A stretch of DNA of 63,445 nucleotides, filler included, from Collodictyon triciliatum (GCA_043381765.1; 4 parts of 4 records of this genome joined end to end with filler, not necessarily neighbours in it); one strand, 5' to 3'; positions 9,101 through 63,350 are shown, counted from the first letter of the whole stretch. Notes: a model not told the origin generated them from the sequence alone. Numbers and translations: made by a program.

Positions 9101-12100
9101 NNNNNNNNNNNNNNNNNNNNNNNNNNNNNNNNNNNNNNNNNNNNNNNNNNNNNNNNNNNNNNNNNNNNNNNNNNNNNNNNNNNNNNNNNNNNNNNNNNNN
9201 NNNNNNNNNNNNNNNNNNNNNNNNNNNNNNNNNNNNNNNNNNNNNNNNNNNNNNNNNNNNNNNNNNNNNNNNNNNNNNNNNNNNNNNNNNNNNNNNNNNN
9301 NNNNNNNNNNNNNNNNNNNNNNNNNNNNNNNNNNNNNNNNNNNNNNNNNNNNNNNNNNNNNNNNNNNNNNNNNNNNNNNNNNNNNNNNNNNNNNNNNNNN
9401 NNNNNNNNNNNNNNNNNNNNNNNNNNNNNNNNNNNNNNNNNNNNNNNNNNNNNNNNNNNNNNNNNNNNNNNNNNNNNNNNNNNNNNNNNNNNATCGAAAT
9501 TGTAGGTTACGAAAGGAAGGAAAGATGAACCAGTCAGCAAATCAACAAGTTTGTCATCGCTCCATAATCAGAATAATATATTTCTAATCGATACCATTTT
9601 TAAAGCATATGAACCTGAGCTTGGCCGATTTGTGGGAGAATATAATGACCCTATTGAGCAATCTATTCCATTCAGTAAAATATCACTTGATTATTTTTTC
9701 CTGTAAAAAAAAAAACATTAGTTCACCGTAACATTGCTCCTATATCTCATATAATTATTGAAAAATGCGAAAAATACAAGAACCAGATATATGCCCACCA
9801 TCAGTCATTCATCTCTTATTTTTATATAAATTAGTTGAGACTATTCATGAATACTCGGGTGGGCATGAGTCTGAGAATATCAAAACCGAATCAAGGTTAA
9901 AATTGAAATTTAAAATTTTGCATAATTCATCAATATTTCAATCAAAAATCTAATCTGCACATCATACAGAGGATTAAATTACATAAATGTTTTAAAAAAC
10001 GAAATATTTATACTTTTTCATCGGTATGTTTGTTAAGCCCTTTAAGATTTTGCGTATTCCATTTTATTCAACAGAGATAATCGGTTGCGAAGATCATCTG
10101 ATGACTCTATGGAGATATCTGCAAAAAATGTTTGCATGACTTTTGATTCGTTCTCGATTTTGGACGAGGTTTTTCTCTTTCATGATTCGTGCACCACTTC
10201 AAATTTTTCTTAAAAGATAAATTCGCATGTGGTTTGTATATATTTTAGTTGTTGGATTACCTACGGTCAACATCTTAAATGCAAATGACATTAGTATGCT
10301 AGCAGAATTCGACTGTCTGTGGATGATATATCAATAATGGATGGCATCCAAACATCAAAGTGGAAAAAGTTCCTTGGTGGATATAAACATTCAGGAAGTT
10401 CAAAATATGTAATATTATTATGCATCTCAAATAATCAGATATATGTATAAGATTTTCTTAATAAATAATATAGTAGTATCTAAAAAAAAAACTGATAGGT
10501 AAATAATTCCTTACATTATGTATAACTTTTTTCTTCGCGTCGTATTTTAACTCCTCTCCCTTTTTTGCTGTATTTGATGGTGATTCAAGAACATGGATGT
10601 TGCATTAAGATTCGAATTATGTTCTGTAAGGCCAAATCCAAAACAGCCCCTGCGTGAAGAGCAGAGGATAAAAGTAATGACCTTTATTCACCATGATGAT
10701 ACTTACATAGTATGTACAAGTGACGCATGAGCAACCATTTAGATGTGTATTTCTAGCCTCTTTTTCCTTTATTCGATTCAAAGTGGTGTATTTCTAGCCT
10801 TGTTTGTTATTGTGATTTCACACCATTGACCTACATTCATTTTCGTCCAGCTTCGAATTCAACCAATGAGACTCAATATTGACCAGGATGCTCTTGACTT
10901 TATCATAGGTGCGTTTAGATTCTTAAATTTCATCCAATCCCCCTTTTATATATTAAATCTCATTCAAATGCTTCCACATAGACTTTTTCACATACTCTCC
11001 AGAAAACCTCTCCGCTGCTCCCGAGGCTGAAGAACCTGGACTTTACTTTCGTAATATATTATTCAATCATTTTCCCTCCTATGTCGCCAATTTTTTCCCG
11101 TTTTTCCACCATAGTGTTTTCAAATCTTGCTATCTTATTCTCATAATTTTTCATTTTTTAAAAAATGTGTATTTTCTCTACCAAAAAATTGTAATAGAAT
11201 TTTGCGAAGTCGGCCCTCTCTTTGTCAAAGTCGATTACAAAGTAATATTTTGGTATTATTATTTACTCTCATTTTATAGCAATAATATATGTAATGAAGT
11301 AAGAAAATCCATTTGCAATATAATAAAAATAATAATAATAATAATAACAACATCAACAACAATTGAATATCTCCAGCCAAAGCGAGTCAATTTTAAAGAT
11401 CTTCACAATGGCAAGTATGCTGAGGCCATCAATTTCTTTCCATTGGAATCTGTGGTTGTTGAACTCCCGCCAGTGAAAATTTCTGGGGTATTACCAAACA
11501 ATATTTTGTAATATCACACCACCCACCAAGTTGTTGTGGCGATGATATAATTGTAATATCATGAATGATTATGATTTTTCACTGTCCTTTTTTCTTAAAT
11601 TTTTTAATATGTTTCTTACTAAAAAAGAAATAAAATGGTTTCAGGTCCGTGGATGGGGAGCACTTGTGGGGGGTCTAGGTTCTCAATGGTTCCCTCACAT
11701 CAAGGGCCAGATTCACAAATACCTCCTTGGAATCCAACCGTTTAGGTCGATGGCTAATATCGGATCAGGGGTATTTTCATTATCAAAACTGCATGAGAAT
11801 CCGGATCCACATGTCATACTGGCTGTTAAATTCCAAAAAAAAAAAAATAAATAAGCTAGATGATAAAATAGGACATGATGCGTAATACATGTGCAAACGT
11901 CCTAAAATTGATACAAATTTGGATTTATTTTTACGTAAGCTTTGATATAACTTAAGTAACTGAAAAACAAGGTTGCAGACCTGGTAATGCTACCAGTGAA
12001 TGATTATCGCAGGAATGGAAGCGTCATCCGAGGTATTCCGTTTTCCCCTCAGAGTTATCCTTGTATTTTTATTTCTTTACCTTTTCATTTATGTCTTTCT

Positions 12101-15440: not shown

Positions 15441-15468
15441 GTTCCTCCTATGCCTCCCTCCTTTTCTG

Positions 15469-15564
<96 letters not shown>

Positions 15565-15565
15565 T

Positions 15566-15665
15566 NNNNNNNNNNNNNNNNNNNNNNNNNNNNNNNNNNN
15601 NNNNNNNNNTTAATTAATTAANNNNNNNNNNNNNNNNNNNNNNNNNNNNNNNNNNNNNNNNNNNN
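15566..15665. other. Artificial scaffold linker (N44-TTAATTAATTAA-N44)
   Basis: A 12-mer with stops in all six frames sits at 15610-15621 between two 44-N runs. The identical structure recurs twice more. Confidence 0.97.
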
Positions 15666-15770
15666 TACCATAAAATACCATAAAATACCATAAAATACCA
15701 TAAAATACCATAAAATACCATAAAATACCATAAAATACCATAAAATACCATAAAATACCATAAAATACCA
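15666..15770. repeat. (TACCATAAAA)n 10-mer tandem repeat at the scaffold edge, probably intronic
   Basis: About 10 perfect head-to-tail copies. Confidence 0.95.
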
Positions 15771-16485: not shown

Positions 16486-19400
16486 TCAGCGGGTGGAAGG
16501 GTGTGAGTACGTCCTTTGGTGGTCGCGGTCGAAGCGCATCCGGCAGGCAGCGCCGTCCTTGCAGGGGATGAGAATCTGGGGGAGGCCCTCATGCGCAAAA
16601 GCTTCTCTGTGTCCGGAGTCAAGCAGTTGGCTGCAGGAAGGCCACTTTGGACAGTCCGGCAGGCGGCGATGGAAGTGCAGCGCGCAATGCTCTGCTTCAT
16701 AAAGGTCTCTGCAGTAATATCCAAACCGGCATTCGTGGCGGTAATTGGCCAAGTGTGTTTTCAGGCCGTATTTGCTGCAGATGCTCCGGCCATCGGTCAA
16801 AAACTCGGGACAGAGCGGAGCAAGCGATGCGGGCTTTCGCCTCTCGCCTGCTCCCTGGCTTGATGGGTTTCCCGGGGCGGGATTTGTAGATCCGGGGACT
16901 AATGTGCTTGGGTCAAAGGACGATGGAGGAGAAGCAACGAGAGTTTGCGGTCGTGTCGGTGTTTGATTCGAAGGCGTGGAAGGCCGTGCGGTTGGATTGG
17001 TGCTTGGTGTGGAGACAATGGCGGTGCCTGATGGCCGGCCTGGAATGGGGTTTGTGGACGAGGAAGGACGGGGATTCGTGCTAGTTGTTGTGGACGGAGT
17101 CGCACCTGTAGAGGATGGCCTCCTTGACGAGACTATTGTTGGCGTCAAAGGCCTGCTGGGCGTGTTTTCCGCAGGATTCTCACGAGCGTCATCAATCGGC
17201 CTTCTTTTTGAGTGTGTGAAAAGGAAACTATGTACTGGTGATGGATTCGAGCAGTTTTCGTATGGGCATAGCGGCGGGTGGCGGAAGCTTTCGCGGTGAG
17301 TTTCCTCATGGACGGTACTGCAGAGTGCTCCGTTCTCGCAAAAGGGTACTTCGCTAACGTATTCTCCAAAGGGAGAGTTTTTTATGGCGAGTGAACTCAG
17401 TTTCCTAGAGAAAACTTGAAATGGAGAGTCTTTGTCGTGCTCGTCTTTGTTCAATATGACTATGAAAATCTAATGGAAAATATATGAGGAATCAGCTTAT
17501 TGCATCACAAGTCAGGTGACCCGCCCAAAGTTACAGCCATTAAGAATACTATATTAGTTATTTCGAGAGAGAAATACAAGGAGGATATACCATAGATATG
17601 TTAGAGAGAGAAAGGAAGAGAGAGATAGAGATAGAGATAGAGATAGAGATAGAGATAGAGATAGAGATAGAGATAGAGATAGAGATAGGAGATAGAGATA
17701 GGAGATAGAGATAGAGATAGAGATAGAGATAGAGATAGAGATAGAGATAGAGATAGAGATAGAGATAGAGATAGAGATAGAGATAGAGATAGAGATAGAG
17801 ATAGAGACAGAGATAGAGATAGAGATAGAGACAGAGATAGAGATAGAGATAGAGATAGAGATAGAGAGAGAATATGTGCATGATTTCTTTTAAAAAAACC
17901 CAATATGGAAACAAAATATATTAAAAGAAAATAAAATCTAATAGAAGGCGAGGTCGAATGTATAAAAGAATATACCTTTTCAAAGAATGTAGCGTATTCC
18001 ATGAAAACTGAATGAAATATATCAGCGATGTCTTCACTTGGGTTTCGATTTACTCCACAGCCAAGGGCCCCCATAACGAGAACATCATTCTTATTTTTCA
18101 GACTTGCTCTCACAAACCATTCAACTTTTTGTCGCGTAAAGTATATGTCCGTCTCATTCAAATGGCCATTACTCAGCTGAGGGGATTGTATCGAAGAGAC
18201 TACAAAGATGTCACAACGAAATGGGTCATCCATGAAAGGGTATCCCTCTTCCCCTTTGCCACGGAAAACACTGATGCGAGGAGCGATAATTCCGCCGCTT
18301 GGCGGGAGTGGATACAAGACAGAGTTTTGTCCCTTTTTTGATGTCGTGTTCCAATTAGTATCCAATACTTGACATATATTTGTTCGACGAAATATGGATT
18401 CTTCCTGCGAGCCTCTGTTGTACTTGTAAACACCTCCTGGGATGTCAGCAGTCCCCATCATCATCACTCCAACGTTGTGTCCCTTGCGTGACAGCAGCTG
18501 CGCAATTTCCAGAGTGTCGCCAGACATGACATTTACATGGCAATTCTTTTTAACATATTTCCTCGACATACGTATTGGGAGGGAGGAAGCTTCTGCGGGA
18601 TAGACCTCTGGCAGTGAAAATATTTTCCCATTAGGCGTTTTGAATTCTTTCTTTTTGATTTGTTCGATAGTGGTAGCAGTTACCAAAATGTAAAGAGATT
18701 GAACCAGTCGAGAATAAGAATTTTCATTTCTTTTCGATCCAAGGGACAATTTCTTGAACTCTTCCAAGTACTCTGCCCATGTCGGAGCGTTCCAATCAAG
18801 TGTATAAATTGGGTGTCCTGGCGGAATGCTTTCAGGTCCTCTAATTTCTAACAGCATCCTTGGCTCCAGAAGATTACCAAACGAAAGTGGAACCCTTGTT
18901 TGCTGCGTGAGCTCAGGAGAAGTGCCTGATTCTGGGTTTGATGCTGGCCGAGCATGTGTTTTTGGGCTTTTCTCCAATGGATCACCCTTAGCAGATATAT
19001 AATCGGGCGGCCCTAGAGGTTTTTCAGGAGTCTTACTCTCTGGTGCACTCAGCTCATTGTAAGTCAATTGCTGTGATGGCTTAGCAGACTGGGGTCTATC
19101 ATGATCTTTTTCAACTCTACCAGCTGGGGATGAAGGCGAAGGTCTGTTATGTTTTCCTGAGGTTCCCTGAGAGGGAGGTGATGAGCGCTTCTCAGGCGTT
19201 TTGGTGGATGGTGTCTTATAACTAAGAGAAATTTGACCTTTTGCAACTTTCATGGTGCTTGCATCCATAAGCTCAAAAAAATAGTCTGCAGAGTTGAGAA
19301 AAATCTGAATTGAGCCACTCTCGTCTGGGCAGATGGAAATAATCTTTTTCTTTGAAATAGCTTCCAGTTCCTTGAAAAGTTGACAAAGTTGCTCAGGGAA

Positions 19401-21206
19401 CCTGTGGTCATAGCCATATAACCTCATAGGAATAGGCTGGAGCCTATACTCTCCAAAGATAAGGTCGTCTTGTTCAAACCGAATAAAATGGTTGACATCA
19501 GGAAAAGATATACGAAGAGCTCCATCATCGGGGTAATATGAAACTTTAATGCGGTATTGGGACAGGGATTGTTCAAGGGTTTTTGCATTGGTATATGTTG
19601 GAATCACATTATCTAAAAAGCATGTTATGGGAAAAGTTGGTATCACTGTAAACACATGGTCGTCAATCGGAATATCTCTTGCTTCTACATGGTCGTCACG
19701 GTCTGAGTCTGATGCAAATATCGCAAAGAGAAAATTAAACGTCTTTGACGGATATAATTCTTTGAGTGATGGGATGTTCGTCCTCAGATAAGTAATTAGT
19801 TTGGGCAAACTGGACTGGAAATGGCTAGGATGCAGATATGGTAAGATTATGGCAGTTGTGCTTCCTAACTTTGGTATATCTACTGCTTGGCTTTTTTGTG
19901 CGTCTGGCTTCTCTTGATGACCTTTTGATGATGACAATGGTGACCCTGGCTCGCACTTATACCCATTTTTCTGGAGAATAGAGGCAGAGTCTCTATATTG
20001 ATCAAGTAAGGTAATTGAACCCTACATACATACGATTGGATCGGTTAATCAGATTATTTTTTTTTAAAAAAAAACTTTTCATGAAGTTCTAAGTTTCAGT
20101 ATGATTTTTATGAATCGAATAAAGGAAAAAAAAAAGTTTCAGTATGATTTTCCTCAGATGCGACAATTATACACATATATAAAATGTTAAGATAGACTAT
20201 ATCAAATTTATACTTTAACATTTTTTTTGGAATTATACTTCTTTTGGCATATATAATAGATAAACAAATAAAAAGCTTAAAATTTACTTTTTCCTGCATA
20301 TAGAATAATATATGATAAAAAAAACATAGTCTTGAGACCACATATATATTCAACACTATCGTATATGTATAGAAGATGGAGCTTTTAAAAAAAACCTTGA
20401 GAGAGGGATAATCCCTTTCGATGAATGGTATCGTTTCGGTTGAGGGGGTCGAATGAAGAAATATAATCTCTTTTTCGGATAGTTGAAGAAAACAGCTAGG
20501 CTCTCTGACAATCTCAGATTGGTAGAGATAATCTGCAAACATTTCAGGTAGGGAAAATTTCGTAGTAACATGCAATAGATATCCTGGGTGGCATTCAACA
20601 ATTATCTGCATAACGTGTGTATGATTAGACTGATATGAAAAATGGCAGTAAAAAAGTAAATAAATAAATGAATATTTTGTGTTCTAGGCAAATTTTCATA
20701 GGAAGATAGGGGAAAATGAAGTTCTTTGGTACTATATTTATCTTTGCCGTTAGATAAATATGTATTATCATAAAAAATTGTCCAATATCCGGTTATGTTA
20801 AAAAAAATTAAACTATTTGGTTTCATTTTTAAAGTATATCGAGAGGAAAATAAACAAATAAACAAACTAAAAAAGAAGTAAAATATATTTAGTAATATTA
20901 AATAACAGCAACACTAATAGCGATAACGTACTATTTCATTTTATCTTTTGAATAAATTGCATATTAGATCGAAAAACTTACAACTTCGTCCCCAAAGTTA
21001 AGAGTCCTCATGCAAAAGTAGTTGACAAAACGACGAAAATTATACGGAACTATCTTAATCACATCTCTCGAATGATCCAAACATATCTCTGATATGTCGA
21101 GGCAGATTTCATTGGAGCTAGATATCGCCTTATAGATGGTGTCTTTTGTATGCTTGCCCTTGGGAACACCTTTTAGCCGCACATAATACAATTCACTTTT
21201 CTCCAT
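16486..21206 (-). CDS. Microbial-type PARG (TIGR02452/DUF2263 macrodomain) with six C-terminal PBZ-like zinc fingers; about 4 exons
   Basis: PARG motifs: [47 protein letters not shown] and [15 protein letters not shown] phase-0 intron (17975-17470) joins ...ATFFEK to IFIVILNK..., completing the macrodomain. The last exon has six C-x-C-x-H-x3-[FYH]-x-H units. Upstream exons (~21206-20986, ~20605-20397, and the acceptor at 20021) are inferred. Confidence 0.8.
17622..17866. repeat. (AGATAG)n hexamer microsatellite in the last PARG intron
   Basis: Tandem array read directly from the sequence. Confidence 0.95.
20091..20151 (+). mobile_element. Very short retroposed insertion, family B copy 2 (25 nt, 18-bp TSD)
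   Basis: AAGTTTCAGTATGATTTT occurs at 20091-20108 and 20134-20151, flanking TATGAATCGAATAAAGG(A)8. Confidence 0.82.
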
Positions 21207-21455
21207 GCTCAAAAAAATCGGCCCGTTTCCTTGCGCTTTTTTTTTTTGGACCAGTATATTGTAAATCTGTTAAAAGGCAGTTAGCTACATTCATTATATT
21301 GCGCATTTAATCGATGTAATGATAAACAAGACTCATACGGATACACACAAACACACACAAAGTATCAAAAGAAAAAAACAATTAGAAGAAACGTAAAGAG
21401 GGTGATAAAAAGCTCCGGATGATTATAACTTTATTTTTAATTAATTTTTTTTATT

Positions 21456-21530
21456 GCAATAAAACAATTCCCACGGTCCTGCACAAAAATTGAAAGGAAG
21501 AATTAAAAAAAAAAACGCAATAAAACAATT
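21456..21530 (+). mobile_element. Short retroposed insertion, family A copy 3 (14-bp TSD)
   Basis: GCAATAAAACAATT occurs at 21456-21469 and 21517-21530, flanking CCCACGGTCCTGCACAAAAATTGAAAGGAAGAATT(A)11C. Confidence 0.8.
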
Positions 21531-21653
21531 AAGGGGCAGAGATAGTTTTTAACACTCAGTGATGTTGGTTTCTTCCAACATAAATAAAAAGTAGTGAAAT
21601 ACGACCTTTCAATAGCCATAGATTATCACCAACCAGAAAGCTTTTCTATATCC

Positions 21654-21720
21654 AAGACAAACAAAGCCCTCACTTTGAATCGAATCAAGGAAAAATAAAA
21701 TAAAAAGACAAACAGAGCCC
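21654..21720 (+). mobile_element. Very short retroposed insertion, family B copy 3 (16-bp TSD with 1 mismatch, decayed tail)
   Basis: AAGACAAACAAAGCCC and AAGACAAACAGAGCCC flank TCACTTTGAATCGAATCAAGGAAAAATAAAATAAA. Confidence 0.75.
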
Positions 21721-22577
21721 CTGCAGGACACCTTTACCGACACTGAATGGATGTTGGCTGGGTTCATTCCCATCCTTGTTTCTCTTTCCTCGCAAATATG
21801 TTGCCATGGCCCGCAGATCATGAGCCGCTTCCCGAACATCATTACCGAATGCCTCTGCAACAGAAGCGTGAGACGTTGGGCGTGTTTTGATTTGTCTCTC
21901 CTTGGCTGATTTTTCCAGGTGGCTGTGCTGATTCAGGGAATGCACCAAGCACCGATCTGCGACGCCTGCAAAGCGAGATACAAACGCCCCTGCGCTGCGC
22001 CCTCGGAAAATCCACAATAAGAAACACAATTCAAATGTTTAAATCTTGCAGAAAAACAACAACCCCGGCGACAGGAAATGGTGGCATTGTTGTCGGCGAT
22101 GGTCAAATGCAGGCAGATTGGATCCCCAGCACAAAGAAAAATCTCCGAGAAAATCAGGGCAGCGCGGAGACTTGTTGGTGCCGCGTCTGCCAAAGTCGAG
22201 CAAAGAAATCATTCTCATTGTGTTTATTTTTTTTTTTGGTAGCGCTCCTTTGCCTCTTCATTTAATATCCTCTATTTCACATTCTACTCTATTTCTTTTC
22301 TTTTTTCCGTTTTTCTTTCCTTTTCTTTTCTTTCCTTTTCTTTTCTTTCCTTTCCTTTCCTTTCCTTTCCTTTCCTTTCCTTTCCTTTCCTTTCTTTTCT
22401 TTTCCTTTCTTTTCCTTTTCCTTTTCCTTTTCCTTTTCCTTTTCCTTTTCCTTTTCCTTTTCCTTTTCCTTTTCCTTTTCCTTTTCCTTTTCCTTTTCCT
22501 TTTCCTTTTCCTTTTCTTTTCTTTTCTTTCTTTTTCTTGTTCCTTTTCGTTTTTCGTTTTTTTCTTTTCTTTTTTTC

Positions 22578-22635: not shown

Positions 22636-25974
<3,339 letters not shown>

Positions 25975-26079
25975 CAATCCTACCAGTCAACCACTATCTA
26001 GCAACATAAACAGAACCAAAAACAAAAGCAAAATTAATAAACAAAAGCAAAAACAAAGCAAAAGAACAAAGCAAAAGTA

Positions 26080-26168
<89 letters not shown>

Positions 26169-26659
26169 ACTGCACATATGGTGTGTCGACATTTCTGATT
26201 CTGCAATCACCACGCTACATACTATATATGATACTATTGTACATCCCAAAAGCCGTTTCCGCTTGCGAGGGGCAATAAATAGATGGCCGGGTACAATTCA
26301 CAATCACACCCACGCAGATGTTGAGAAAGAGGTTTTGTCTATGAGTGCAACTCCTCTAATTAGATTCTGCAATAACCCAAATCGCATACCCAACATGAAA
26401 ACCTGACAACCCTGATATCCACACGCAAGCCAAACTGCACACTACGTTGGACAAATGGAAATCCCGTCCATCTCTTCTTTTGCCTTCCAAGTACACCAAG
26501 TTCTAGCCGGAACTGAAGACATCGAGTACATATCCTATTGTTTGTGCAGCAGGGTAGCAGTAGAGTTCGTTTCTTTTTGTTTTTCTTTTTATTGTGTTGG
26601 TCTATTTCTTCCGGTGCTGGTTGGCGGGCGGGATTACAGAGTTGGGTCTTTGAATGGCC

Positions 26660-31088: not shown

Positions 31089-32987
31089 ATGAGCACTCTA
31101 TTGTTCCCCTCAGAACTCGGGCCTGTGCTTGAGGACCTCCGCAATGCATCTGGATCGATCAAATGGTGGGGACTTCTCATTTCCTTGCTTGTCTTTATTA
31201 GCTGAGAGTAATAAGTGGATACTTTTCGTATTTTTTTTCATTTTTTTCATTTATTCAATTCAAAGATGGAAGACTTGTTTTATTTCTTTATATCTTTTAT
31301 TTCTTAATTTCTTCATTTATTTCATTTTTTTATTTCTTCATTTATTCATTTCTTCATTTCTTCATTTATTTCATTCCTTCATATCTTCATTTTTCACTTC
31401 TTTAATTCTTCATTTTTTTTATCCCTATTGACCCAGCATACTAGTTTATGATTTGATGTTTGAACCTTATATCGTGTCATTTATCCTTTACATTTTCATC
31501 TAATTTAATATATGTTTTTACCGATACATCAAAGTTATTTTTACAGTGACTTCAATATTTAGGCTATTCCCAATTTTCCTCAAATATTTTTCTGTGTAGG
31601 GTTGTTTTGGTTTATGAAGATGGAGAGAAGGATAAGCTCGCACTGAAATCAAAAGTAACATTTTCTTTTTAAAACTGAATAATTATAACACGATTGATTG
31701 ATTGAACAAGTTGTTTTCAATTATCCACAAGTGTCCTAATGCTGGAAAATCAAATATCAAGTGATGAAATGAAGTCTTTTGCTATTTAGAATCAATTTAA
31801 AAGCTTTGTATATCACCCGAACACAACAGGGGTCTGGCGCAGTGGATGAGTTTGTTGCATTTTTTTCCGATGACCAAGTTGCCTATGGGCTGCTATCATT
31901 GAAAGTAGACGACGCTTTTAGTAACCGATACAAGGCAAGTCCAGATCTTCACGCCCCTTTTTGAGAGAGAAAATTATTATCTTACTCAACACATATTCAT
32001 GTTTATAAACAAGAAATCATATTCCTTATATAATAGACATTTTGGAATATTTAGAATGCACTCGTTGTATGGTCTGGAGAAAAGAGTCATTGGATGGTGC
32101 GAGGACAAGTCACAGCACACAAGCCATATGTTGAGAATTTCTTTAAGGTAAGTAGTATTTGCAGCAAAAGTGTATTGATAAAACACCTTTATCATTCCTC
32201 TGCGATTATTGTTGCATTACTACATCACTCTGAGAAAAAAATCTTATATTTGCGTTTGTACAGGGGATATACCATGTCATTCTCCCAGCTACAACTAAAG
32301 AAGATTTGACCGAGGATTTAATTCGAAAGTCTTTGAAAAAGGTAAGGATGAGTTAATTGAGGTGTGTAATGAACATGAATGTGTCTCATCTTTCGATGTA
32401 TACAGAGTCCATTCATGTATCTATGTCCGTAATACAAAAATTGAGTATTTGACTCATCTCTTTTTCTTTTCCTTTTTTTCCTTTTTTTCCTTTTTTTCCT
32501 TTTTTTCCTTTTTTTCCTTTTTTTCCTTTTTTTCCTTTTTTTCCTTTTTTTCCTTTTTTTCCTTTTTTTCCCTTTTTTTTCTTTTTTTCTTTTTTTTCTT
32601 TTTTTTCTTTTTTTTCTTTTTTTTCTTTTTTTTCTTTTTTCTTTTTCCTTTTTTCCTTTTTTCCCCTGACAGGCCAGCGGTGCAGACTACGATGCGGGAG
32701 GGAAAGACCAAACCACAGCGGAAAGCAGCAGCACAGTTGAGGTATCAGAAAAGAGCTACTTCATGTGCTCATTTTTGCAAATTATGTACAGTAATACTTA
32801 TTCCAGTGAATTTCTTCTCCTTTTTTCCTTGACTAACTATTCAACAACTTTTTCTTCAATATAACGGGTGAAAATATCTATATCCATCGGCATGCAGTCT
32901 GAAGAGTCCGCAACAAAGGCTCAATTCACGAAGCCAGATAGGCCTGGGCGTGGTGGGCGACAGCTTATCCGCAAGGCAGCCTCATAA
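31089..32987 (+). CDS. ADF-H domain actin-binding protein (coactosin/Abp1-like), about 7 short exons
   Basis: MSTLLFPSELGPVLEDLRNASGSIKW|VVLVYEDGEKDKLALKSK|GSGAVDEFVAFFSDDQVAYGLL..YK|NALVVWSGE..VRGQVTAHKPYVENFFK|GIYHVILPATTKEDLTEDLIRKSLKK|ASGADYD. The last exon is inferred. Confidence 0.82.
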
Positions 32988-33786: not shown

Positions 33787-33886
33787 NNNNNNNNNNNNNN
33801 NNNNNNNNNNNNNNNNNNNNNNNNNNNNNNTTAATTAATTAANNNNNNNNNNNNNNNNNNNNNNNNNNNNNNNNNNNNNNNNNNNN
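33787..33886. other. Artificial scaffold linker (N44-TTAATTAATTAA-N44)
   Basis: The 12-mer is at 33831-33842. Confidence 0.97.
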
Positions 33887-34276
33887 AAAATAAGAAAAAA
33901 GAAAATAAGAAAAAAGAAAAAAAGAAAAAAGAAAAAAAGAAAAAGAAAAAAGAAAAAAAAGAAAAAAAAAGAAAAAAGAAAAAAGAAAAAGAAAAAGAAA
34001 AAAGAAAAAGAAAAAAGAAAAAGAAAAAGAAAAAGAAAAAAGAAAAAATGAAAAGAAAAAGAAAAGAAAAAGATCCAAAATTCTGGATTCAAAAAAGAAA
34101 AAAGAAAAAAGAAAAAAAGTTCACTCAACTGTACCCAACCTTCCACCACACAGATCCAACCGCTCATCAAGTCAGAAAGCAAGCCGAAACATCAGAAGAG
34201 AGCGCAGACCCGGCCTTCCGAGCCGTTCCGATCGCCGTCTTACGATCTCCTTCTCTCCAGCCAAGGATCATAGAAG

Positions 34277-46156: not shown

Positions 46157-46636
46157 TTTGTTGTGCGAGGCTGCGAGTCTATTCGGCGGAATAAACCCAC
46201 CTTTTTCCTTGTTGTCTGTGTCTGCGCTTCCTCCTGTCCGCTTGTGCCTGTCGGTCGTTGCCTTTTTTTTTTTGATCCTTTTTCTTTTTCTTTTTGAATA
46301 CCCTTTTTTTTATTGATATTTTTTTTTCTTAAATCTCAATTTTGTTTTGGTTTAATCCAGAAAAAGGAATATTGTTATGGTATATTATATATGGTTGATA
46401 TACCACGGTATATATAATATTGTATCTGTCGCATCCCAATGCCTGTTCTCTGGCTTGACAGGCCAAAAGCTGCCACAAGATCGAGGCGCGTTGCGCAGGC
46501 ACATAGGGAACAACCTGCTCGGCCATTGTCGACGCGCCTCAGTGCAGCCCCTTCTGCTTGCTCGCCTCACGTTCGAAGCAAACGACCTTCGATATCACCT
46601 CACCAACAGATTGTCTGGCACTGTCATCGTTCTCTC

Positions 46637-48051: not shown

Positions 48052-51000
48052 TCATTCATTCTTTCATTCTTTCTTTCATTCTTTCTTTCATCGTCACATT
48101 CATGATGCTTTTCATTGAATGAACATCGCTGTGTGCAGGAGCATTCGCAAAGGATGGACACAGAGTACGGTTCTTCTCTCAGTCAACATGTCTCTCCACT
48201 TGGTAACCATCCGGCCTCTGGCTTACATGAGAAAAGTGTCCCATCGCCGGCAGATTTTGCCAAGGCTGAAGATTCTATGGGGCCACAGAAGCTCCCTCAA
48301 AACTTTTCTGATCAGATAGAATCACCGGCCCTCAGTAACTTCAAGGACGATTTGAAAGCTAGTTTTGCTCCGGTTGAAAAGGGGAATTTTATCGATGCTG
48401 CTGCCCTCCTTCTCTCCCTCGGCCAAGAACCTCTGGCTCCCAAATCGTCGATGGAACAATCACTCTCTCATGGTCATGATGTCAAAAAGGATGTAGGGAT
48501 TCGAAGTTTGACTGATTCCAGTGATATTTACCAACTTTACGATAGACTGTTGCACCATTATGGATCTGCTCCTCACAACGCTCCAATGGAATATTACGAG
48601 CCTTGTGTTGTTCTGATCCGAAAAATATTCCAAATCGATTCTACCTTTCTTCCTCTTTGGATAACCTTTCAACATATAAGTGATGACAAACCAAAACTTT
48701 TCCCTTATTCTGAGTTCAATCCGATGATGAAGCAACTATACCAATCCTCCAAGACTCTATCACCTGATAAACTCAGGTTCTGGGAATCATTTGTTGTGTC
48801 TCTATTCGAACAAAACAGGCTATTCATTTCCTCGTCGCCTGTCTCTATCCTCAAAGTTTTGGTATATTCTGCCTTTTATTTGTCATACGTAAAGAACACC
48901 CATCTAACTCTTTCTTCTCTGGTCGAAATCACATCGCAACAAGGAGGACAGCCTGAAATACCCGCACCATACTTTGTTTATGGGTATTATATACTAGCAG
49001 GGATGTTTGGGAAAGGAATGCTCTTAGAGCAAGGTGTTGGGTTTTTGGGGAAAGCTGCGATGATGGGGCACGCATACGCGCAGTACAAGTATGGCCAGTC
49101 ATACGAATCGGGCATTGGTGTTCGAAAAAGTATCTCAGAGGCCTTCCACTGGTACAAACTATCTGCAGAGAACGGTGATAAAAGCGGGCAGTTCAACCTG
49201 GCGAATCTGTACTACCAAGGTATAGGTTGTGCGGCAAACCATGTGGAGGCCAAAAAATGGATGAAGTCTTCTGCTGACCAAGGGCATCCCAACGCTATCG
49301 CCATGATGGAAAAACTCGGGGACTCACAAAAACAATATGGGAAACATGTGCATGTGCAAAATCGTGAAAAACAAACAGACCCCAATATTGCCGATCTTGT
49401 GTTACAATCCATGCAAAAAATTGCAGACAAAGAGGAGAGCCCACAGGCCATGGTGGCAGCTGGGAAAAACTATCTTTATGCTAGGGACATTGCACAAAGC
49501 AAACAGAAAGCGTTTGAAATATTCACCAAAGCAGCCGAAGCAGATTACATCCCAGCAAAATACTATGTTGCTTTTTGTCTAGAGTATGGACATGGAGTTG
49601 TTATGAACGTAAGGAAGGCTATCGATTTATACCGATTATGTGCTGATAAAGGTCACGATGGCTCTCAATATCGCCTTGCATACCATCTTTTCATCGGTTC
49701 GTACATCCAGTCAAATTATGCGGAATCTGCTCATTTCTTACAGCTCGCTGCCAGTCAGAATTTCAAACAGGCGCAATATCGGTTGGCTACATTTTATTTA
49801 TCTGGAACTGGTGTGGAAATGAACAAAGAGGAGGCTTTCTTTTGGATGAAAACTTGTGCGGATAAAGGTATCCTCGATGCCATCTGCGAGGTAGGGTTGT
49901 TCTACCTGAAAGGCACAGGAACAGAAGTCAATCAACCTCTTGGACTAAAATACCTCAAGACAGCCGCAAAGTATGGTCATGAGGAAGCTTTGGAGCTCTA
50001 TTCCCGCTATGAGGGAAAATTACAAAGCGGGTTTACTCCCAGCGCGCAGGCGTATCGCAAGGTAGTGGACCGAAAATTTGAAATCATAGAAGATGATAGC
50101 GACGAGGAAGATGGGAAAGATGAGTCAGTCCATAAAAGTGAAAATGCTACTGGAGATGAGGAATCTGACTTGAAAGAGTTTGGCGGTGAGAAGTCCAAGC
50201 CTGCCCGTTCTGAGAATGACAAAGAGGATCTTTTGAAGACAATGACCATTTTGCGAGAGCAGAAAATTGCGCCTGCCGAGGATGGAAGAGGGGCAAAGTC
50301 TGCCAGCTCTCCTTCGGTGCGTTCACAGGAAAGAGACGTCAATCCCATGACTTATGTACACTTGATACCAGGAGATGAGGAAACAAGAAACTACGAATTG
50401 GGTATGGAATATCTAGAAGCAACGACTGCTCACCAAAAGAACTATACAACTGCATACAACTACTTTTTACAAGCAGCAAAGAAAGGGCATGCACAGTCCA
50501 TGAGTATGGTAGGGAAAATGTGGAACGAAGGACTTGCAAGACCGATTGATGACGAGAAGGCTTTTAGTTGGTACACTGCTGCCACTGAGAAGGATGACAT
50601 GGAAGGGATATACATGCTTGGTAAATATTACTATACCGGCCTTGCCTCAGTTCGGTCTGCGGAGCGTTCTTTCTCTTTATTGAAGAAGGCAGCAGAAAGA
50701 AATCACGCAGGTGCACAGAGATATGTTGCATACCTTTATCAAGAGGGTTATGGCACCCAGCGCAGCAACCAGGAATACATCCGCTGGCTACGAAAGTCAT
50801 CGAGTAACGGGGACATGACTGCGACGTATCAGTTGGGTCGAGAAATGATTAGTGGCAAATGCACAGGCGTGAAGGATTTAGTGGAAGGATTTTCGCTGTT
50901 TGAAAAGGCTGCCAACGCAGGAAATCGGGTATCCATGCTTTACGTGGCCCAGTTATATGAATCTGGCTATGGCGTAGAGAAGGATATACAGCAAGCTAAA

Positions 51001-51081
51001 AAATACTATACGATGGCTGACCATGCCGGGTATTACAAGGCTAAAAAGGAGCTTGCCCGTTTAAAAGAACAAGGCTACTGA
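46841..51081 (+). CDS. TKL-like pseudokinase fused to Sel1-like repeats, 2 exons
   Basis: Exon 1 has kinase motifs GEWQGVPVTVKV, HPAILTVYG..IYVLVEH, WARHLASALAFL, FCAPELL, ADTYAL and DPARRP. Phase-0 donors at 47930 or 47942 match the phase-0 acceptor TGCAG|GAG at 48139, across a (CTTT)n intron. Exon 2 has roughly 14 Sel1 repeats, e.g. AQYKYGQSYESGIGVRKSISEAFHWYKLSAENG. Confidence 0.78.
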
Positions 51082-51940: not shown

Positions 51941-52040
51941 NNNNNNNNNNNNNNNNNNNNNNNNNNNNNNNNNNNNNNNNNNNNTTAATTAATTAANNNN
52001 NNNNNNNNNNNNNNNNNNNNNNNNNNNNNNNNNNNNNNNN
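51941..52040. other. Artificial scaffold linker (N44-TTAATTAATTAA-N44)
   Basis: The 12-mer is at 51985-51996. Confidence 0.97.
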
Positions 52041-57739: not shown

Positions 57740-58436
57740 TTTTCTTCTCATTGCATATCCTGTCTTTGGCCCCCTTTTTTAACTTATTTTTGCCATTTGT
57801 CTTATCCCACGATTTTACTTGTAATGATAGATACTTTTGCCCTGTCCTGCTATACATCCTGCGTTTCTCACTTTTTTTCCACATCCTTATTGAGACACCC
57901 ATATATTAAAATCTGAAGAAAATGTAGATTATTGTGGCTTAATGCACAACGAGCCAANNNNNNNNNNNNNNNNNNNNNNNNNNNNNNNNNNNNNNNNNNN
58001 NNNNNNNNNNNNNNNNNNNNNNNNNNNNNNNNNNNNNNNNNNNNNNNNNNNNNNNNNNNNNNNNNNNNNNNNNNNNNNNNNNNNNNNNNNNNNNNNNNNN
58101 NNNNNNNNNNNNNNNNNNNNNNNNNNNNNNNNNNNNNNNNNNNNNNNNNNNNNNNNNNNNNNNNNNNNNNNNNNNNNNNNNNNNNNNNNNNNNNNNNNNN
58201 NNNNNNNNNNNNNNNNNNNNNNNNNNNNNNNNNNNNNNNNNNNNNNNNNNNNNNNNNNNNNNNNNNNNNNNNNNNNNNNNNNNNNNNNNNNNNNNNNNNN
58301 NNNNNNNNNNNNNNNNNNNNNNNNNNNNNNNNNNNNNNNNNNNNNNNNNNNNNNNNNNNNNNNNNNNNNNNNNNNNNNNNNNNNNNNNNNNNNNNNNNNN
58401 NNNNNNNNNNNNNNNNNNNNNNNNNNNNNNNNNTAC

Positions 58437-61400
58437 CGCAACATTCAGAAGATAAAACGAGAGCCACGCCGACTCTGCATTTTCCTTCTCGACCAAGAGC
58501 TGGAGTAACCCAAGTTCAATAGATAAGATTAGTCTATCGAGTTTTCGATGGCAAATCATTCTCTACTCTCATTTTTTTCAATAGAAAAAGATTAATTCCT
58601 CTCCTACTGAAGCTAAACTCGCATATTTTGCATATGTATTCATGTAATCACTGATATGACGAGCAATTTAAATAACCGATAAATGATCGTATGATGAGCA
58701 GAAAATCAACTGGAATACCATCTGGAAGGAGAAGCACCGAATATTTAGGAACTTGTAGCGCCGATCAAGAATTCCGTAGCCGAGTTCAAGCGCATCCAAC
58801 ACAGATTCGTATGTTGGCTTCAAGTCTGTCCACTTCTTCCGCAAGATACCCAACGATGTGGATTTCTATGCATGCAAATGATTATGCAGATGTCTGTCAG
58901 CTTACTCTCTCACACAAGCAAACGGAACGTCGACAACATCACACTCACCCACAAACATCAGACTGGCGTGGATTGCACAAGATGACAAAGGATAAAGGAC
59001 AAAGGACAAATGACAAATGACAAAGGACAAAGGACAAGGGACAGGCCACGGCAAACTCACGTCTTCTTCGGGAATCTGAATCATGTCGGGGAGTTTCGTA
59101 GTTTCTAGTCGTTCCTCCAACCATTCTGTGAAAATATCGATGTTCATTCCGTCTTTGAGGCCGTTTTTCCCGTGGAACACATCGTGGAGCTGCGAGTGGA
59201 CTTGTTAGATATTGATTGAAGGGAAGGAAGAAAAAAAAGAGGTCATATTCAATACCTCAGCCCAGGAAAGTAACCAAGGAAATACAAACGAGGATTTTGA
59301 AAGGAAAAAGTCTGTACTGCTTTTTCTGGGATGTCCAGGTCAAACAACTTTGCAATAATCCAGAGCTCATCCTTATCGATGCATTTGTTTCGGTCGCCAT
59401 CTGCGGCGTTGAATGCGCTCTTTGTAATTTCAAACAGATTGTTCGTTGTTGCGTGTGATGAAATGAAACAAATAAGTTGAGCGAAGGTAAAGAGTTGTAG
59501 TGTGTATATACGAAGTGTCTGGGATATAAAGCAAGAGGCGAAAACAGGTAGAAAGTCCCATGATTTCTCATCTAGTTATTCATCGTAAAAATACGCCGAC
59601 CAAGAAAGAGAATAGATTTAAATAGGTCTTCGTCATGTGCTTCTAGAATTCTTACTCGAAGAAAGTGCTGTCTTTTTTCATTCTCTGATATCCACTTGTT
59701 CATGATAAATGCCGTGAACTTGTCGAAATCGACAAACTGCTCGTCCCTTTTTCATACATGGAAACAAAATAGTAATCAGTGTTTACTTTTTAAACTAGGA
59801 AAGGAAGAGAGAAAAAACAACTCTGTCACGACGGAAGTGGCTGGACGATGAAAGCATACGATTCGCCTCCGCTCTGGCTCGGCAGACGCATTTCACTCCC
59901 GAGTTGCTGCTGAATGTCCTTTGAGTTGAGCGAATCAGGGGCAAACTTTTCGATGATTTTGTTTGCTCGCGTGATTGGGATTGTGATGCGGCCGGTTGCA
60001 TTCCCTACAAAGTTGTAGAATTCATCGCGTGATTGGACCACATTATGGAACTCTCGATGTCTCAGAGATTCTAATCCCACCATCTGAAGAAATAGGAAAG
60101 ATGGCGCACTTTCTTTTCTTTTATTTTTTTTTTTGATGGATTGTTTGCTTGCTTGTTTGTTGTTTGTTTGTTTGTTTGTTTGTTTGTTTGTTTGTTTGTT
60201 TGTTTGTTTGTTTGTTTGTTGTTGTTTGTTGTTTGTTGTTTGTTTGTTTGTTTGTTTGTTTGTTTGTTTGTTTGTTTGTTTGTTTGTTTGTTTTTTGTTT
60301 GTTTGTTTGTTTGTTTGTTTGTTTGTTTGTTGTTTGTTTGTTTGTTTGTTTGTTTATTTGTTTGTTTGTTTGTTTGTTTGTTTGTTTGTTTGTTTGTTTG
60401 TTTGTTTGTTTGTTGTTTGTTGTTTGTTTGTTGTTTGTTTGTTTGTTGTTTGTTTGTTTGTTTGTTGTTTGTTTGTTGTTTGTTTGTTTGTTGTTTGTTT
60501 GTTGTTTGTTTGTTGTTTGTTTGTTTGTTGTTTGTTGTTTGTTGTTTGTTTGTTTGTTGTTTGTTTATTTGTTTGTTTGTTTTTTGTTTGTTTTTTGTTT
60601 GTTTTTTGTTTGTTTTTTGTTTGTTTTTGTTTGTTTTTGTTTGTTTTTGTTTGTTTTTTTTTGTTTTTTTTTTGTTTTTTTTGTTTTTTGTTGTTTTTTG
60701 TTTGTTTTTTGTTTGTTTTTTGTTTGTTTTTTGTTTGTTTTTTGTTTGTTTTTTGTTTGTTTTTTGTTTGTTTTTTGTTTGTTTGTTTGTTTTTTGTTCA
60801 TTTGTTTTTTGTTTGTTTTTTACTTTTTTACATACGGAAGATACATAAGAAGGTATAATCGAATCAATCATATGATAGGAAGAGAGGAAAGTATGAACAG
60901 TAAGATCTAAACGGAAATTCACCCTGAAGTGCTCGGATTCCTCGACTCACCGTCCCACCGTCAACCAGAACAGTCAGTAATTGGCTGCACAATCCGTAAT
61001 CGAAAAAAAAACATATATATTGTGAACAATTGGGAATATGCATCATTTTAATATGAAATTGGCCTCGTATTACTTGTACCATTTTATGTACGAGGTTCAT
61101 ATCATATTGTAATTCAATTTTTTGATTGTTTCTGAATAAATAAATTTATAAATACATGAATATTTGAAAGTATTTGTTCAGAAGCGGTGCATGCTTCAAA
61201 TTGGGCATTCGACAGAATCGTAGAAACCATTGACAACGAAGTGAATTATCAGCATTCTGGATTGCTGTGTAAATCATGTCCTGTAGTTTCTACACGTGAT
61301 GTGAATTATCTTTATGTGATATTTTAAATACATGATAGGACGCAAAAGAAAAAAATCGACACAAATATTCCCTTTCTTTAGAAAAAAACTATTATTTTTT

Positions 61401-63350
61401 TTGCTGCATTGTTATGTATGCCACTATTTCTTAATACCTCTGTTGCTCTTTTTCCAAATTTAAGATAATGATACTTTAATGTAAAATCAGATATGATCGG
61501 ACGCGTGCTTTATTTTCAAAAAAAATAATAATTGGAATAAGAGGCATCAGTTAAAGAGTGAATTGAAATTATGAAACTCTGAGTGATGTTATTCTGTGTC
61601 TTAACGTGTATTATATTTATCCTCTTAGTATAGAGTGTTGCTCTTTAAAGTAATGGGAAAGTAGCAGACAATCACATGAAATATACATAAGTACTTTTTT
61701 GGAGTCTCATTCAAGATGAACTTGATAAAGTAATCTAACAGTTTTGGTGATGAAAAAAAAAGTAACATCGTTTATTCATCAAATTTAAATATTATGTCTT
61801 TGATAAAACCATAATTATGAAATGTATGCATTATGAGAACGAGTAAAAATACCATTATAGATATCCGTTATGGCCGTCTCTACATTGATGAGGGTCAATA
61901 CTTCTGGTGTGCGTTCTGTGTAAATAATAATAATAATATTATTAATAATAATAATAATAATGAAAAAGGAAAAATGTATATTTAAGCATCAATCATTTGT
62001 AATCTCAAGTCATTGCATTTATTCTAGAATTTTTATTTCAAAAAAGGAAAATAGTGAGCAACTTTTTGGCAGTATATGAATCCAAGAAGGTGCTCCATCA
62101 TGACCCGATTTTTTCCCGCTATTCATTAGCTCAGAACGTAGTGTCTGATGAAACAGAAAAAAAAACGTAATGCCATATCCGCTGTACATATTGAAAGAAG
62201 CGAATGAAACAAGAAAAAATTTGACATATTTACACACTCAAAATTATTGAAGTACCCCATGATTTGATATCAAAAGGATACTACGCTCAATGAAAATACT
62301 ACATGCCACCAAAACATACATCATCTTCCATGGATAGTTGGATTCCCCAATCATCACTTATCCACGACTTCAGCAATTCATCTGTTTGTATCCCTATGTC
62401 AAGCAAGAGTCAAATTCTACGTCCCGATCGTGTCAAAACTATAATGAAATAAACGCGGTTCATCTAAAGAATGGAAAAATAAGCTGGTATCTCTCTTTGA
62501 ATCGAATAAAGGAAAAAAAAAAGCTGGTATCTCTAGCAAACCTTTACTGAAACGACTTACGGAATCGATCCATCAACATGTCTTGTCCTGTTATCTCTGT
62601 TTGACAGTCACAGTCCGCCTGCTCACCAAATTTTGTTTGCGAACTGACGTCCTTCGTCACTCGTGAAACATCATTCTTTGACATTTGGACAATGGTAACG
62701 TGTATTCAGCATAATTAAACGCATGAAAAAGAAAAGAAATTTATGTGTCTTTTGAATTCAAGTGTGCATTCCTGTATTGTAGGATATTTATTTCCGGAAG
62801 ACAAATGCTTTGTACTTTGAACGATGTATTAAAAGCACACCAGTAATTGAGTATCGGAAACAACTAAACCGGGGTCATATCGGGAATCATCCTGGTTGCT
62901 GTGCGCGTTTTGGGGCTGTGTTCGCGAAGGACCGGAATTGAGAATCGGAACTACAAGTGATCAGTTTACTTCCACCGTAGTTTTTTGTATCATTTTCGGA
63001 ATACACTGGATGCTGGAGAGACATGACTAACGAGTGGCCCAGATGGCTTGGTTTGTGACCGAGAGGAATGTAGTTCCTGTCACAATAAATAGTAGATAAT
63101 ATTAAAGACAGGAGACAAGTAGATGAAAAGGAATCCGCCCGTTTTTTCGCTGTGATGTCTGACTTGTCCAAAGAGTCTCTCTATTATGAGACCTGCAGAA
63201 GATAAAATCATCATAACTAGTAAAAACGCACCTTGGACTAATATTGCCTCTCGGAGAGCATTGGCCTCGTCGACCATGGCTTGTTGGCTTCGTATGTACG
63301 CGGCATATTCTCGTTTTTCTTGTTTGAAATCCTCCAATATTTTCTTCAGT
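58437..63350 (-). CDS. Intron-rich coiled-coil/EF-hand protein, partial at both ends
   Basis: A chain of short, mostly phase-compatible exons: LKKILEDFKQEKREY..; DFTLKYHYLKFGK; LRCQWFLRFC; DEQFVDFDKFTAFI; and the EF-hand SAFNAADGDRNKCIDKDEL (~59420-59370). Some junctions near 63200-63080 are ambiguous. Confidence 0.6.
60141..60820. repeat. Degenerate (TTTG)n/(TTG)n array, ~680 bp, intronic
   Basis: Low-complexity array read directly from the sequence. Confidence 0.95.
62481..62534 (+). mobile_element. Very short retroposed insertion, family B copy 4 (26 nt, 14-bp TSD)
   Basis: AAGCTGGTATCTCT occurs at 62481-62494 and 62521-62534, flanking CTTTGAATCGAATAAAGG(A)8. Confidence 0.82.

Follow-up and report, generated by a model that had tools for sequence, protein, structure and literature searches.

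A sequence core of about 20 nucleotides (TGAATCGAATAAAGG, hereafter family B), together with a short A-run, was found as reverse-transcribed copies at four places at least, and probably six, within a 63-kb stretch of eukaryotic DNA. This stretch, called the window throughout, consists of four scaffolds joined by N44-TTAATTAATTAA-N44 spacers and holds about 61 kb of non-N sequence. The copies are of mixed age, share a tight 5' boundary and are accompanied by three insertions of a second short sequence (family A). The explanation we favour, with a probability of about 0.5, is that a longer non-LTR element has its extreme 3' end copied by target-primed reverse transcription (TPRT), which stops near a fixed point.

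Results

Census and structure of the copies

A search of the whole window with a 15-mer of the core, allowing up to two mismatches, returned six matches where 0.32 were expected, and none of 100 shuffled controls reached this number (Table 1). At four of the six, the insert is flanked by its own target-site duplication (TSD) of 14-18 bp, perfect in three cases and with one mismatch in the fourth. The original prediction had listed these four inserts on three scaffolds. Direct reading reproduced all of their coordinates, and the family B copies fell on the first, second and fourth scaffolds of the window. The count of four given there stands for those copies, but the total is six, with two degraded core matches added at 25246-25260 (+) and 31248-31262 (-), both followed by A-rich tails. 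Reading the copies also bore out that AATAAA lies immediately ahead of the tail, that the 5' ends fall within about 6 nt of one another, and that three of the four TSD-bearing copies have TSDs starting with AAG.

As for age, three copies combine a perfect TSD with an identical core, one carries a mismatch in both core and TSD, and two are degraded. At the first degraded copy (c5) the upstream sequence departs from the CAC of the others, and this copy is therefore no longer than they are. The second (c6) appears, as judged by eye, to have a decayed direct repeat that starts with AAGT on both sides.

Table 1. Positions and structure of the family B (c1-c6) and family A (a1-a3) insertions in the window.
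Copy	Position	Strand	TSD	Insert	Remarks
c1	10745..10800	-	10786-10800 and 10745-10759 (read on - strand); AGGCTAGAAATACAC, 15/15 match	10760-10785: CACTTTGAATCGAATAAAGG + AAAAA + G	G after the A-run not present in the upstream TSD copy
c2	20091..20151	+	20091-20108 and 20134-20151; AAGTTTCAGTATGATTTT, 18/18 match	20109-20133: TATGAATCGAATAAAGG + A8	A-run of 10 when the TSD's own AA is included; then G
c3 (older)	21654..21720	+	21654-21669 and 21705-21720; 16-nt repeats, 15/16 match	21670-21704: TCACTTTGAATCGAATCAAGG + interrupted A-run	One substitution in the core
c4	62481..62534	+	62481-62494 and 62521-62534; AAGCTGGTATCTCT, 14/14 match	62495-62520: CTTTGAATCGAATAAAGG + A8	A-run of 10 when the TSD's AA is included; then G
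c5 (degraded)	25244..25265	+	None resolvable	TTTGAATCGAATAAAGAAAAAC	
c6 (degraded)	31225..31265	-		CTTTGAATTGAATAAATG + long interrupted A-run	Two mismatches in the 15-mer core; tail end approximate
a1	5880..5964	-	13 nt	59 nt: 48 templated bases + A11	Next base C
a2	12162..12241	-	18 nt	44 nt: 35 templated bases + A9	A-run of 11 when the TSD's AA is included; then C
a3	21456..21530	+	14 nt	47 nt: 35 templated bases + A11 + C	Final C of the insert absent from the upstream TSD copy

When short-range direct repeats were sought without regard to tails, the window yielded seven versus 0-1 in each of 20 shuffles, and five of the seven turned out to be family B or family A insertions. Likewise, A-tailed TSD candidates shorter than 100 nt numbered seven, compared with 0-3 in 10 shuffles. 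Long A-tailed, TSD-flanked insertions of up to 6 kb were close to chance level (28 versus 11-25 in 10 shuffles) and were discarded. Self-BLAST of the window gave six HSPs, every one of them within family A or family B, and revealed no other dispersed repeats in the four scaffolds. Taken together, the two families amount to nine copies in about 61 kb of non-N sequence, or roughly one copy per 7 kb.

The TSDs are specific to each copy and variable in length (15, 18, 16 with one mismatch, and 14 bp in family B; 13, 18 and 14 bp in family A). In all four TSD-bearing family B copies the downstream repeat is directly preceded by an A-run of 5-16 positions, and there is variation of a few bases among the 5' ends. 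These features support the TPRT-type signature claimed earlier, and the occurrence of a TSD at each of these copies with an abutting A-run, in repeats far beyond chance, supports the TPRT reading.

Regarding their surroundings, c1 precedes an ATG2-like + strand exon by about 40 nt, a position that makes it antisense and intronic. Copy c2 lies about 90 nt past the upstream stop of a minus-strand 806-aa ORF, with no convincing coding sequence at the copy itself; we rejected the idea that it disrupts a coding exon, as the neighbouring ORFs stay unjoined when the insert is removed. Copy c3 is antisense to a minus-strand ORF and lies shortly beyond its 3' end; there is no long ORF near c4. All three gene-associated copies are therefore antisense to the adjoining ORF, which fits selection against a sense AATAAA in a sample of only three.

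Insert length and 5' boundary

The templated part of family B measures 15-21 bases in all six copies. None of the six exceeds 21 templated bases, and the window holds no copy with just 5-14 bases of the core. The 5' ends are spread over about 6-7 nt, with an identical boundary in young and old copies. A model of memoryless truncation gives a poor fit (joint P at most about 9e-4), indicating that random truncation of the ordinary kind is insufficient. The lack of longer copies is a weak test of a parent, since zero in six is compatible with up to 39% longer copies genome-wide. Within these 63 kb we did not observe a length series reaching an ORF-bearing full-length parent, and the window by itself neither proves nor excludes a parent element.

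The A-run and the base after it

The base that follows the A-run is family-specific, being G in 4/4 copies of family B and C in 3/3 copies of family A. The lengths of the run also repeat within each family (10 and 10 in c2 and c4; 11, 11 and 11 in family A), with only five A's in c1 and an interrupted run in c3. Because of the repeated lengths and the family-specific next base, the 'A-tail' of both families is possibly something other than an ordinary poly(A) tail. However, A/T runs across the whole window comprise 13 of length 11, eight of length 10 and one of length 12, and this excess of 11-nt runs weakens the argument from length. Given this over-representation, we keep a templated A-run of fixed length as a lead only.

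A sister family with longer inserts

Family A consists of CCTGCACAAAATTGAAAGGAAGAAT followed by an A-run and is represented by three copies with 35-48 templated bases, all with perfect TSDs. Its last 25 bases are invariant across the copies, whereas the 5' parts differ although all three TSDs are perfect, and a1 exceeds a2 and a3 by 13 nt. An invariant 3' end joined to differing 5' parts points to several distinct, longer sources with a common conserved 3' end. Furthermore, inserts of this size indicate that short retro-insertion is not peculiar to the family B core.

Search for a parent element, an enzyme or a known RNA family

No reverse transcriptase or endonuclease Pfam domain was found in 135 of the 162 ORFs of at least 90 aa (16 + 119 scanned); the 27 ORFs outside the scan are mostly alternative-frame ones that overlap the long genes on scaffold three, and 300 ORFs of 55-89 aa were listed below its size limit. 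As to the proteins encoded in the window, the best protein match of a polycystin ORF has 36% identity, a WD40 ORF has protein matches to repeat-level relatives only, and a PARG-like ORF has no protein match.

We did not see a parent element of family B in the window, and self-BLAST showed no fragments of a LINE body. Rfam gave no match at the gathering threshold over the whole window; four sub-threshold matches in 20000-21800 (E 0.57-5.1, with E up to 10 admitted) were discarded as noise. The inserts, with their 15-21 templated bases and no Rfam match, showed neither a SINE head (tRNA, 7SL, 5S or snRNA) nor an internal Pol III promoter. Nor could a core of only 20 nt accommodate the internal promoter that SINEs use, a point in favour of a longer parent.

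A hairpin with a 5-bp stem (CTTTG/TAAAG) can be drawn in the core. Its MFE is -0.3 kcal/mol (z +0.42), and variant copies break the stem, possibly through mutation after insertion. Three family B copies folded at -0.3, 0 and -4.1 kcal/mol, only the mutated c3 being better than shuffles, and the z-scores of family A ranged from -1.22 to +0.02. As a recognition element or stop for the reverse transcriptase, the core hairpin lacks thermodynamic support.

Nine loci in bacterial and archaeal contigs that match a 20-mer used to look for further copies were attributed to chance, none of them having a CTT prefix, a TSD or a long A-run. In the portions of the literature open to text search, the core and family A strings (both strands, also with U for T) led only to work on apparently unrelated subjects (shrimp virus metabolism, glioma mutation, Drosophila P450). 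Nor did the literature searched on short SINEs and abortive retrotransposition contain a retroposon family of this size, and the family B copies are far below the size of any named retroposon family that we know or found.

Discussion

The window shows the insertions themselves, their TSDs, the tight 5' boundary and the presence of both recent and older copies; an enzyme, a longer parent and a cause of the boundary are what we infer. The insertions would be the work of a non-LTR (LINE-type) endonuclease/reverse transcriptase whose gene lies elsewhere in the genome. This enzyme would nick the bottom strand, leaving a free 3' end that reads ...CTT in three of the four copies, and this end would serve as primer at the 3' terminus of the template RNA, pairing over 0-3 bases. 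The A-run would be copied first, followed by about 15-21 bases of unique sequence, and the TSD would result from a second, staggered nick 14-18 bp away. A longer element, either a LINE or a SINE with a LINE's tail, would supply its extreme 3' end as template. Copying, or 5' joining, would come to a halt about 20 nt in, close to a fixed point; RNA cleavage at the boundary, a hard stop for the enzyme and an early switch to the target are candidate causes.

In several respects the copies behave as 5'-truncated ('dead on arrival') LINE-1 elements do, with variable TSDs, a 3' A-run, a missing 5' part and insertion by TPRT. Extreme 5' truncation is known of LINE machinery: over 99% of LINE-1 genomic copies are 5'-truncated, and a 6-nt Alu with a 40-nt tail is listed as the 'shortest Alu insertion' (PMC4859970). 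Our copies share with such single LINE-1-mediated events the combination of few templated bases and a tail (PMC4859970). However, extreme Alu truncations are isolated within families whose norm is full length, whereas here the tiny form is recurrent and the sole one seen. Unlike truncated LINE-1, moreover, all copies have fewer than 50 templated bases (6/6 in family B, 3/3 in family A), the 5' ends of family B fall in a 7-nt span without a broad length distribution, and neither parent nor reverse transcriptase was seen in the window. The presumed nick sites of family B also differ, with CTT or CCT before the nick as opposed to the TTTT/AA reported for LINE-1 targets in PMC4859970.

With its common last 25 nt, family A resembles the 'stringent' SINE/LINE pairs that have a short 3'-terminal block in common. 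Conserved 3' ends are described for such pairs in PMC3472496, and a monocot L1 lineage is reported to share with its SINEs a conserved last 45 nt with a hairpin (Ohshima, PMC3472496). Known SINEs, by contrast, carry a promoter-bearing head measuring tens to hundreds of bases, while families A and B are headless and their candidate hairpin is unsupported. PMC4864456 describes Platy-1, about 100 bp long, as the shortest primate SINE.

Against a longer parent count the limit of 21 bases in family B, the poor fit of the truncation model, the missing LINE body in the window, the lack of a reverse transcriptase or endonuclease domain in the scanned ORFs and the unsupported hairpin. The original prediction had offered a choice between a small-RNA-sized unit and a LINE or SINE stopping at a fixed point; this choice was framed rightly, but 63 kb are too little to make it.

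The first of these options would be a complete RNA of about 30 nt (a core of about 21 nt, about 10 A's and a terminal G). It would be transcribed from a single master gene or a few, under an external promoter, and a LINE enzyme would mobilise it in trans. All six copies share a 5' limit within about 7 nt, with none longer and none shorter, and do so in both young and old copies, as such an RNA would predict; no LINE body is repeated in the window. The A-run of 10 in the two youngest + strand copies and the G that follows in 4/4, once absent from the target, would suit a defined RNA 3' end, although the window-wide excess of 11-nt A/T runs weakens the part of this argument that concerns length. 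We nevertheless consider it unlikely. The window contains no master locus or promoter, every copy being a TSD-flanked insertion or a degraded one, and Rfam offers no small-RNA family at the gathering threshold anywhere in it, only the sub-threshold matches mentioned above. Family A, with one copy 13 nt longer and heterogeneous 5' parts, is a better fit to truncated longer parents. If true, family B would be a 'micro-SINE' far below known SINE sizes.

More broadly, the family B unit of about 30 nt and family A (at least 35 nt, 11 A's, terminal C) could both be complete template RNAs with defined 5' and 3' ends, a tentative idea that we regard as somewhat unlikely. They would then be the smallest retroposon families described and the dominant interspersed repeat of a genome otherwise without transposon bodies in 61 kb. 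The family-specific terminal base would in that case mean that the enzyme brings the extreme 3' end of the RNA into register with the nicked target through 0-3 paired bases.

The copies are also reminiscent of processed pseudogenes, which are TSD-flanked, A-tailed RNA copies made by a LINE enzyme in trans (PMC3472496). They might stem from an abundant host mRNA or non-coding RNA of which only a piece of the 3' end was copied, as extremely truncated processed pseudogenes of non-transposon origin. This would agree with the AATAAA beside the A-run in the core and with the copying of cellular polyadenylated RNAs by LINE enzymes (PMC3472496). We find it improbable, as, unlike in processed pseudogenes, two sequences of just 15-48 nt recur many times, and two RNAs (six and three copies) as the sole dispersed repeats in 61 kb would be more typical of an element's own RNA. 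In addition, the A-run begins 2 nt after AATAAA, and the usual cleavage distance is greater than this.

Quite improbable, in our view, is a run-off copy of the 5' end of an RNA starting TCACTTTG, primed on a genome-encoded A-run about 20 nt from that end; leader-like sequences and the beginnings of abundant transcripts are candidate sources. A single assumption would here cover the fixed 5' limit, the repeated A-run lengths and a templated, family-specific base. The five A's of c1, the interrupted run of c3 and the 13 additional nucleotides of a1 do not agree with it, and at no locus of the window is the core followed by anything but an A-run. Internal priming is exceptional for poly(A)-dependent LINE enzymes, and the core string and its variants led only to apparently unrelated subjects in the text-searchable portions of the literature.

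An origin without retroposition, through chance repeats, DNA-transposon footprints or MITEs, or filler DNA from break repair, is disfavoured and hardly credible. In its favour is a terminal inverted repeat (CTTT...AAAG) visible by eye in the core, of only 4 nt; against it, the core occurs six times where 0.32 are expected, the A-run stays on one constant side of it, the TSDs vary from 14 to 18 bp whereas those of DNA transposons are short and fixed in length, and break-repair filler comes without target duplications.

If insertions of both families were as frequent genome-wide as in the window, there would be thousands to tens of thousands of them, short enough to escape standard repeat annotation, where such matches are discarded. 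These micro-insertions would be a clean natural record of the first 25-60 nucleotides of TPRT, namely of where priming starts, the amount of pairing used, and where and why synthesis stops, and they would bear on the minimum RNA required for retroposition. Finally, each copy brings AATAAA and an A-run, or in antisense a pyrimidine tract, into introns and gene flanks, and may thereby affect splicing and polyadenylation.

Results

Direct reading of the four sites reproduced, at their exact coordinates, the inserts and flanking repeats of the original prediction, and family B (a core of about 20 nt followed by an A-run) does occupy three of the four joined scaffolds. Its four copies (c1-c4) were all confirmed; the count is nevertheless six, with two further degraded copies carrying A-rich tails (c5, c6). 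A 15-mer of the core, allowing at most 2 mismatches, gave 6 matches against 0.32 expected, a number reached in none of 100 shuffles. By eye, c6 has a decayed flanking repeat that starts AAGT; no target-site duplication (TSD) could be resolved in the flanks of c5. Nine matches of a core 20-mer in bacterial and archaeal genomes lacked any insertion feature and were set aside as chance.

Features of the window
Feature	Position	Strand	Description
Family B, c1	10760-10785	-	CACTTTGAATCGAATAAAGG then AAAAAG; 20 templated bases; flanking repeat 15/15
Family B, c2	20109-20133	+	TATGAATCGAATAAAGG then A8; 17 templated bases; flanking repeat 18/18
Family B, c3	21670-21704	+	TCACTTTGAATCGAATCAAGG then interrupted A-run; 21 templated bases; flanking repeat 15/16
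Family B, c4	62495-62520	+	CTTTGAATCGAATAAAGG then A8; 18 templated bases; flanking repeat 14/14
Family B, c5	25244-25265	+	about 17 templated bases
Family B, c6	about 31225-31265	-	about 18 templated bases
Family A, a1	5880-5964	-	48 templated bases; TSD 13
Family A, a2	12162-12241	-	35 templated bases; TSD 18
Family A, a3	21456-21530	+	35 templated bases; TSD 14
ATG2-like exons	10830-11851
PARG-like ORF	17601-20021	-	806 aa; microbial-type PARG domain, E 5e-10
LRR / polycystin channel / SPRY gene	34274-40396	+	three long ORFs
WD40 protein	42584-46309
Sel1-repeat protein	48106-51081

The 5' boundary of family B is not that of ordinary truncation. None of the six copies continues upstream into shared sequence, an observation still compatible with up to 39% longer copies genome-wide, and a model with a constant per-base stop fits with a joint probability of about 9e-4 at its best mean (8 nt) and below 3e-6 at means of at least 50 nt. 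The boundary, too sharp for random truncation, is common to young copies with perfect TSDs and to old ones. No copy in the window holds only the last 5-14 core bases: TAAAGGAAAA is confined to c1, c2 and c4, and the other three AAAGGAAAAA sites outside microsatellites showed no flanking repeat by eye. Extra AAAGGAAAAA matches come from a (AAAGGAAA)n-type microsatellite at about 32480-32660 (-), which overlaps the minus-strand ORF 32416-32760; given this overlap, the "collagen" Pfam match of that ORF may be spurious.

An A-run-plus-repeat scan revealed a sister family, A, whose three insertions share the terminal sequence CCTGCACAAAATTGAAAGGAAGAAT, followed by an A-run and then C. Their TSDs are all perfect and their last 25 bases identical, except for one extra A in a3, and several positions further upstream differ between copies. 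The intact TSDs make different source sequences, rather than decay after insertion, the most likely cause of these differences.

Self-BLAST of the window returned six HSPs only, of 23-57 nt, three within family B and three within family A; the copy flanks are therefore unrelated and the copies are not parts of larger repeats. At E below 1e-3, there was no other dispersed repeat within or between the four scaffolds and no transposon body. A tail-agnostic scan for direct repeats (minimum 12 nt, spacing 8-150 nt) found seven cases, five of them family A or B insertions; none of 20 shuffles gave more than one. The two others, of 12 nt and without A-run, lie at 19654-19698 and 59967-60036 (21 and 46 nt apart); the former falls within the PARG-like ORF and, with its period of 33 nt, may represent a short in-frame duplication. 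A-tailed, TSD-flanked candidates below 100 nt were in excess (7 vs 0-3 in shuffles), and for lengths up to 6 kb the number was close to chance (28 vs 11-25). The nine tiny inserts of the two families are thus the sole dispersed repeats in about 61 kb of non-N sequence, and no other retro-insertion there is convincing.

The RT-encoding parent sought in the original prediction did not emerge from the window: no RT or endonuclease domain was present in the 135 ORFs scanned out of 162 of at least 90 aa. The window also contained no Rfam family, and the core stem CTTTG/TAAAG was no more stable than in shuffles. Literature searches with the family strings returned only papers on apparently unrelated subjects, and those for short retroposons no family of such size.

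The first non-A base past the run is G in all four TSD-bearing family B copies and C in all three family A copies. In c2-c4 this G is the third base of a TSD starting AAG, while in c1 the G, like the C in a3, is an extra base not in the upstream TSD copy. Of the 34 A/T runs in the window that reach 10 or more, about 13 are followed by G, 12 by C and 9 by T; by our own arithmetic, chance would give two homogeneous families of such size in about 1 case in 100. Including the leading A's of the TSD, the A-run measures 10 in c2 and c4 and 11 in each family A copy; c1 has a run of 5, and that of c3 is interrupted. These lengths call for caution because 11-nt A/T runs are in excess window-wide (13, vs 8 of length 10 and 1 of 12). 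Family A tails account for only 3 of the 13, the others have no TSD, and the cause could be technical or biological. Very long homopolymers also occur: T75 at 4246-4320, A86 at 26081-26166, within an apparent plus-strand ORF (25832-26275) with weak, low-complexity Pfam matches, and an A22/A22/A37 cluster at 523-661, whose runs have short G-containing and T9 blocks between them.

The window (63,445 bases, 39% G+C, 2,377 N) consists of four scaffolds joined end to end by N44-TTAATTAATTAA-N44 spacers at 15566-15665, 33787-33886 and 51941-52040, and distances measured across these are meaningless. The DNA is eukaryotic, with long ORFs interrupted by short GT-AG-looking gaps. The LRR, polycystin channel and SPRY ORFs seem to be exons of a single gene. 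In the closest relative found for the polycystin ORF (36% identity, 1596 aa, transcriptome-derived), all three domain types are fused. The WD40 ORF has repeat-level relatives only, and the PARG-like ORF none at E of at most 1e-3 among the 443-1411-aa proteins of a large protein collection.

Copy c1 lies antisense in an intron, about 40 nt upstream of the ATG2-like exon encoding MRLNIDQDALDFIIG. Copy c2 lies about 90 nt past the stop codon upstream of the 806-aa ORF on the minus strand; in-silico removal of the insert does not join ORFs, and disruption of a coding exon was discarded. Copy c3 adjoins the 3' side of a minus-strand ORF; it occupies either the final codons or the 3' flank of that ORF, or else an intron that follows a GT. 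No long ORF surrounds c4. All three ORF-adjoining copies (10745-10800, 20091-20151, 21654-21720) are antisense to their neighbour and read on the gene's strand as pyrimidine-rich tracts, that of c1 about 40 nt upstream of a 3' splice site. Such a bias (n=3) would be expected if AATAAA plus an A-run were harmful in sense.

Discussion

The inserts of both families are well supported as products of target-primed reverse transcription, and an origin by chance or without retroposition is very improbable.

Our preferred reading, with a probability of about 0.5, is that the template is the very 3' end of a non-LTR element of greater length, or of its SINE, and that synthesis stops near a fixed point. 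We prefer it because family A shows variable extent and several sources, because 20 nt cannot carry a promoter, because LINE machineries can leave copies that are very short, such as the 6-nt Alu with a 40-nt tail listed in PMC4859970, and because stringent LINE/SINE pairs have a conserved 3' tail in common (PMC3472496). Against it, no copy is longer, no LINE body is repeated, and the boundary is sharper than random truncation would give. A micro-retroposon, with an RNA of about 30 nt that is complete as seen, is an unlikely alternative. The 3' end of a host RNA, for which the AATAAA just before the tail might speak, is more doubtful still. Slightly less probable again is that the enzyme primes at an A-run within an RNA and copies as far as that RNA's 5' end.

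As for the terminal base, one possibility is that the enzymes of the two families differ in nick preference. The other is that each RNA ends A(n)G or A(n)C and that 0-3 of its terminal bases pair with the nicked target; the two extra bases, each matching the terminal base of its own family, favour the latter.

The shortest SINE named in the literature found is Platy-1, of about 100 bp (PMC4864456). The mechanism is of a known kind; we found no description of a family of which only copies with 15-21 templated bases, all ending near the same 5' point, are visible.
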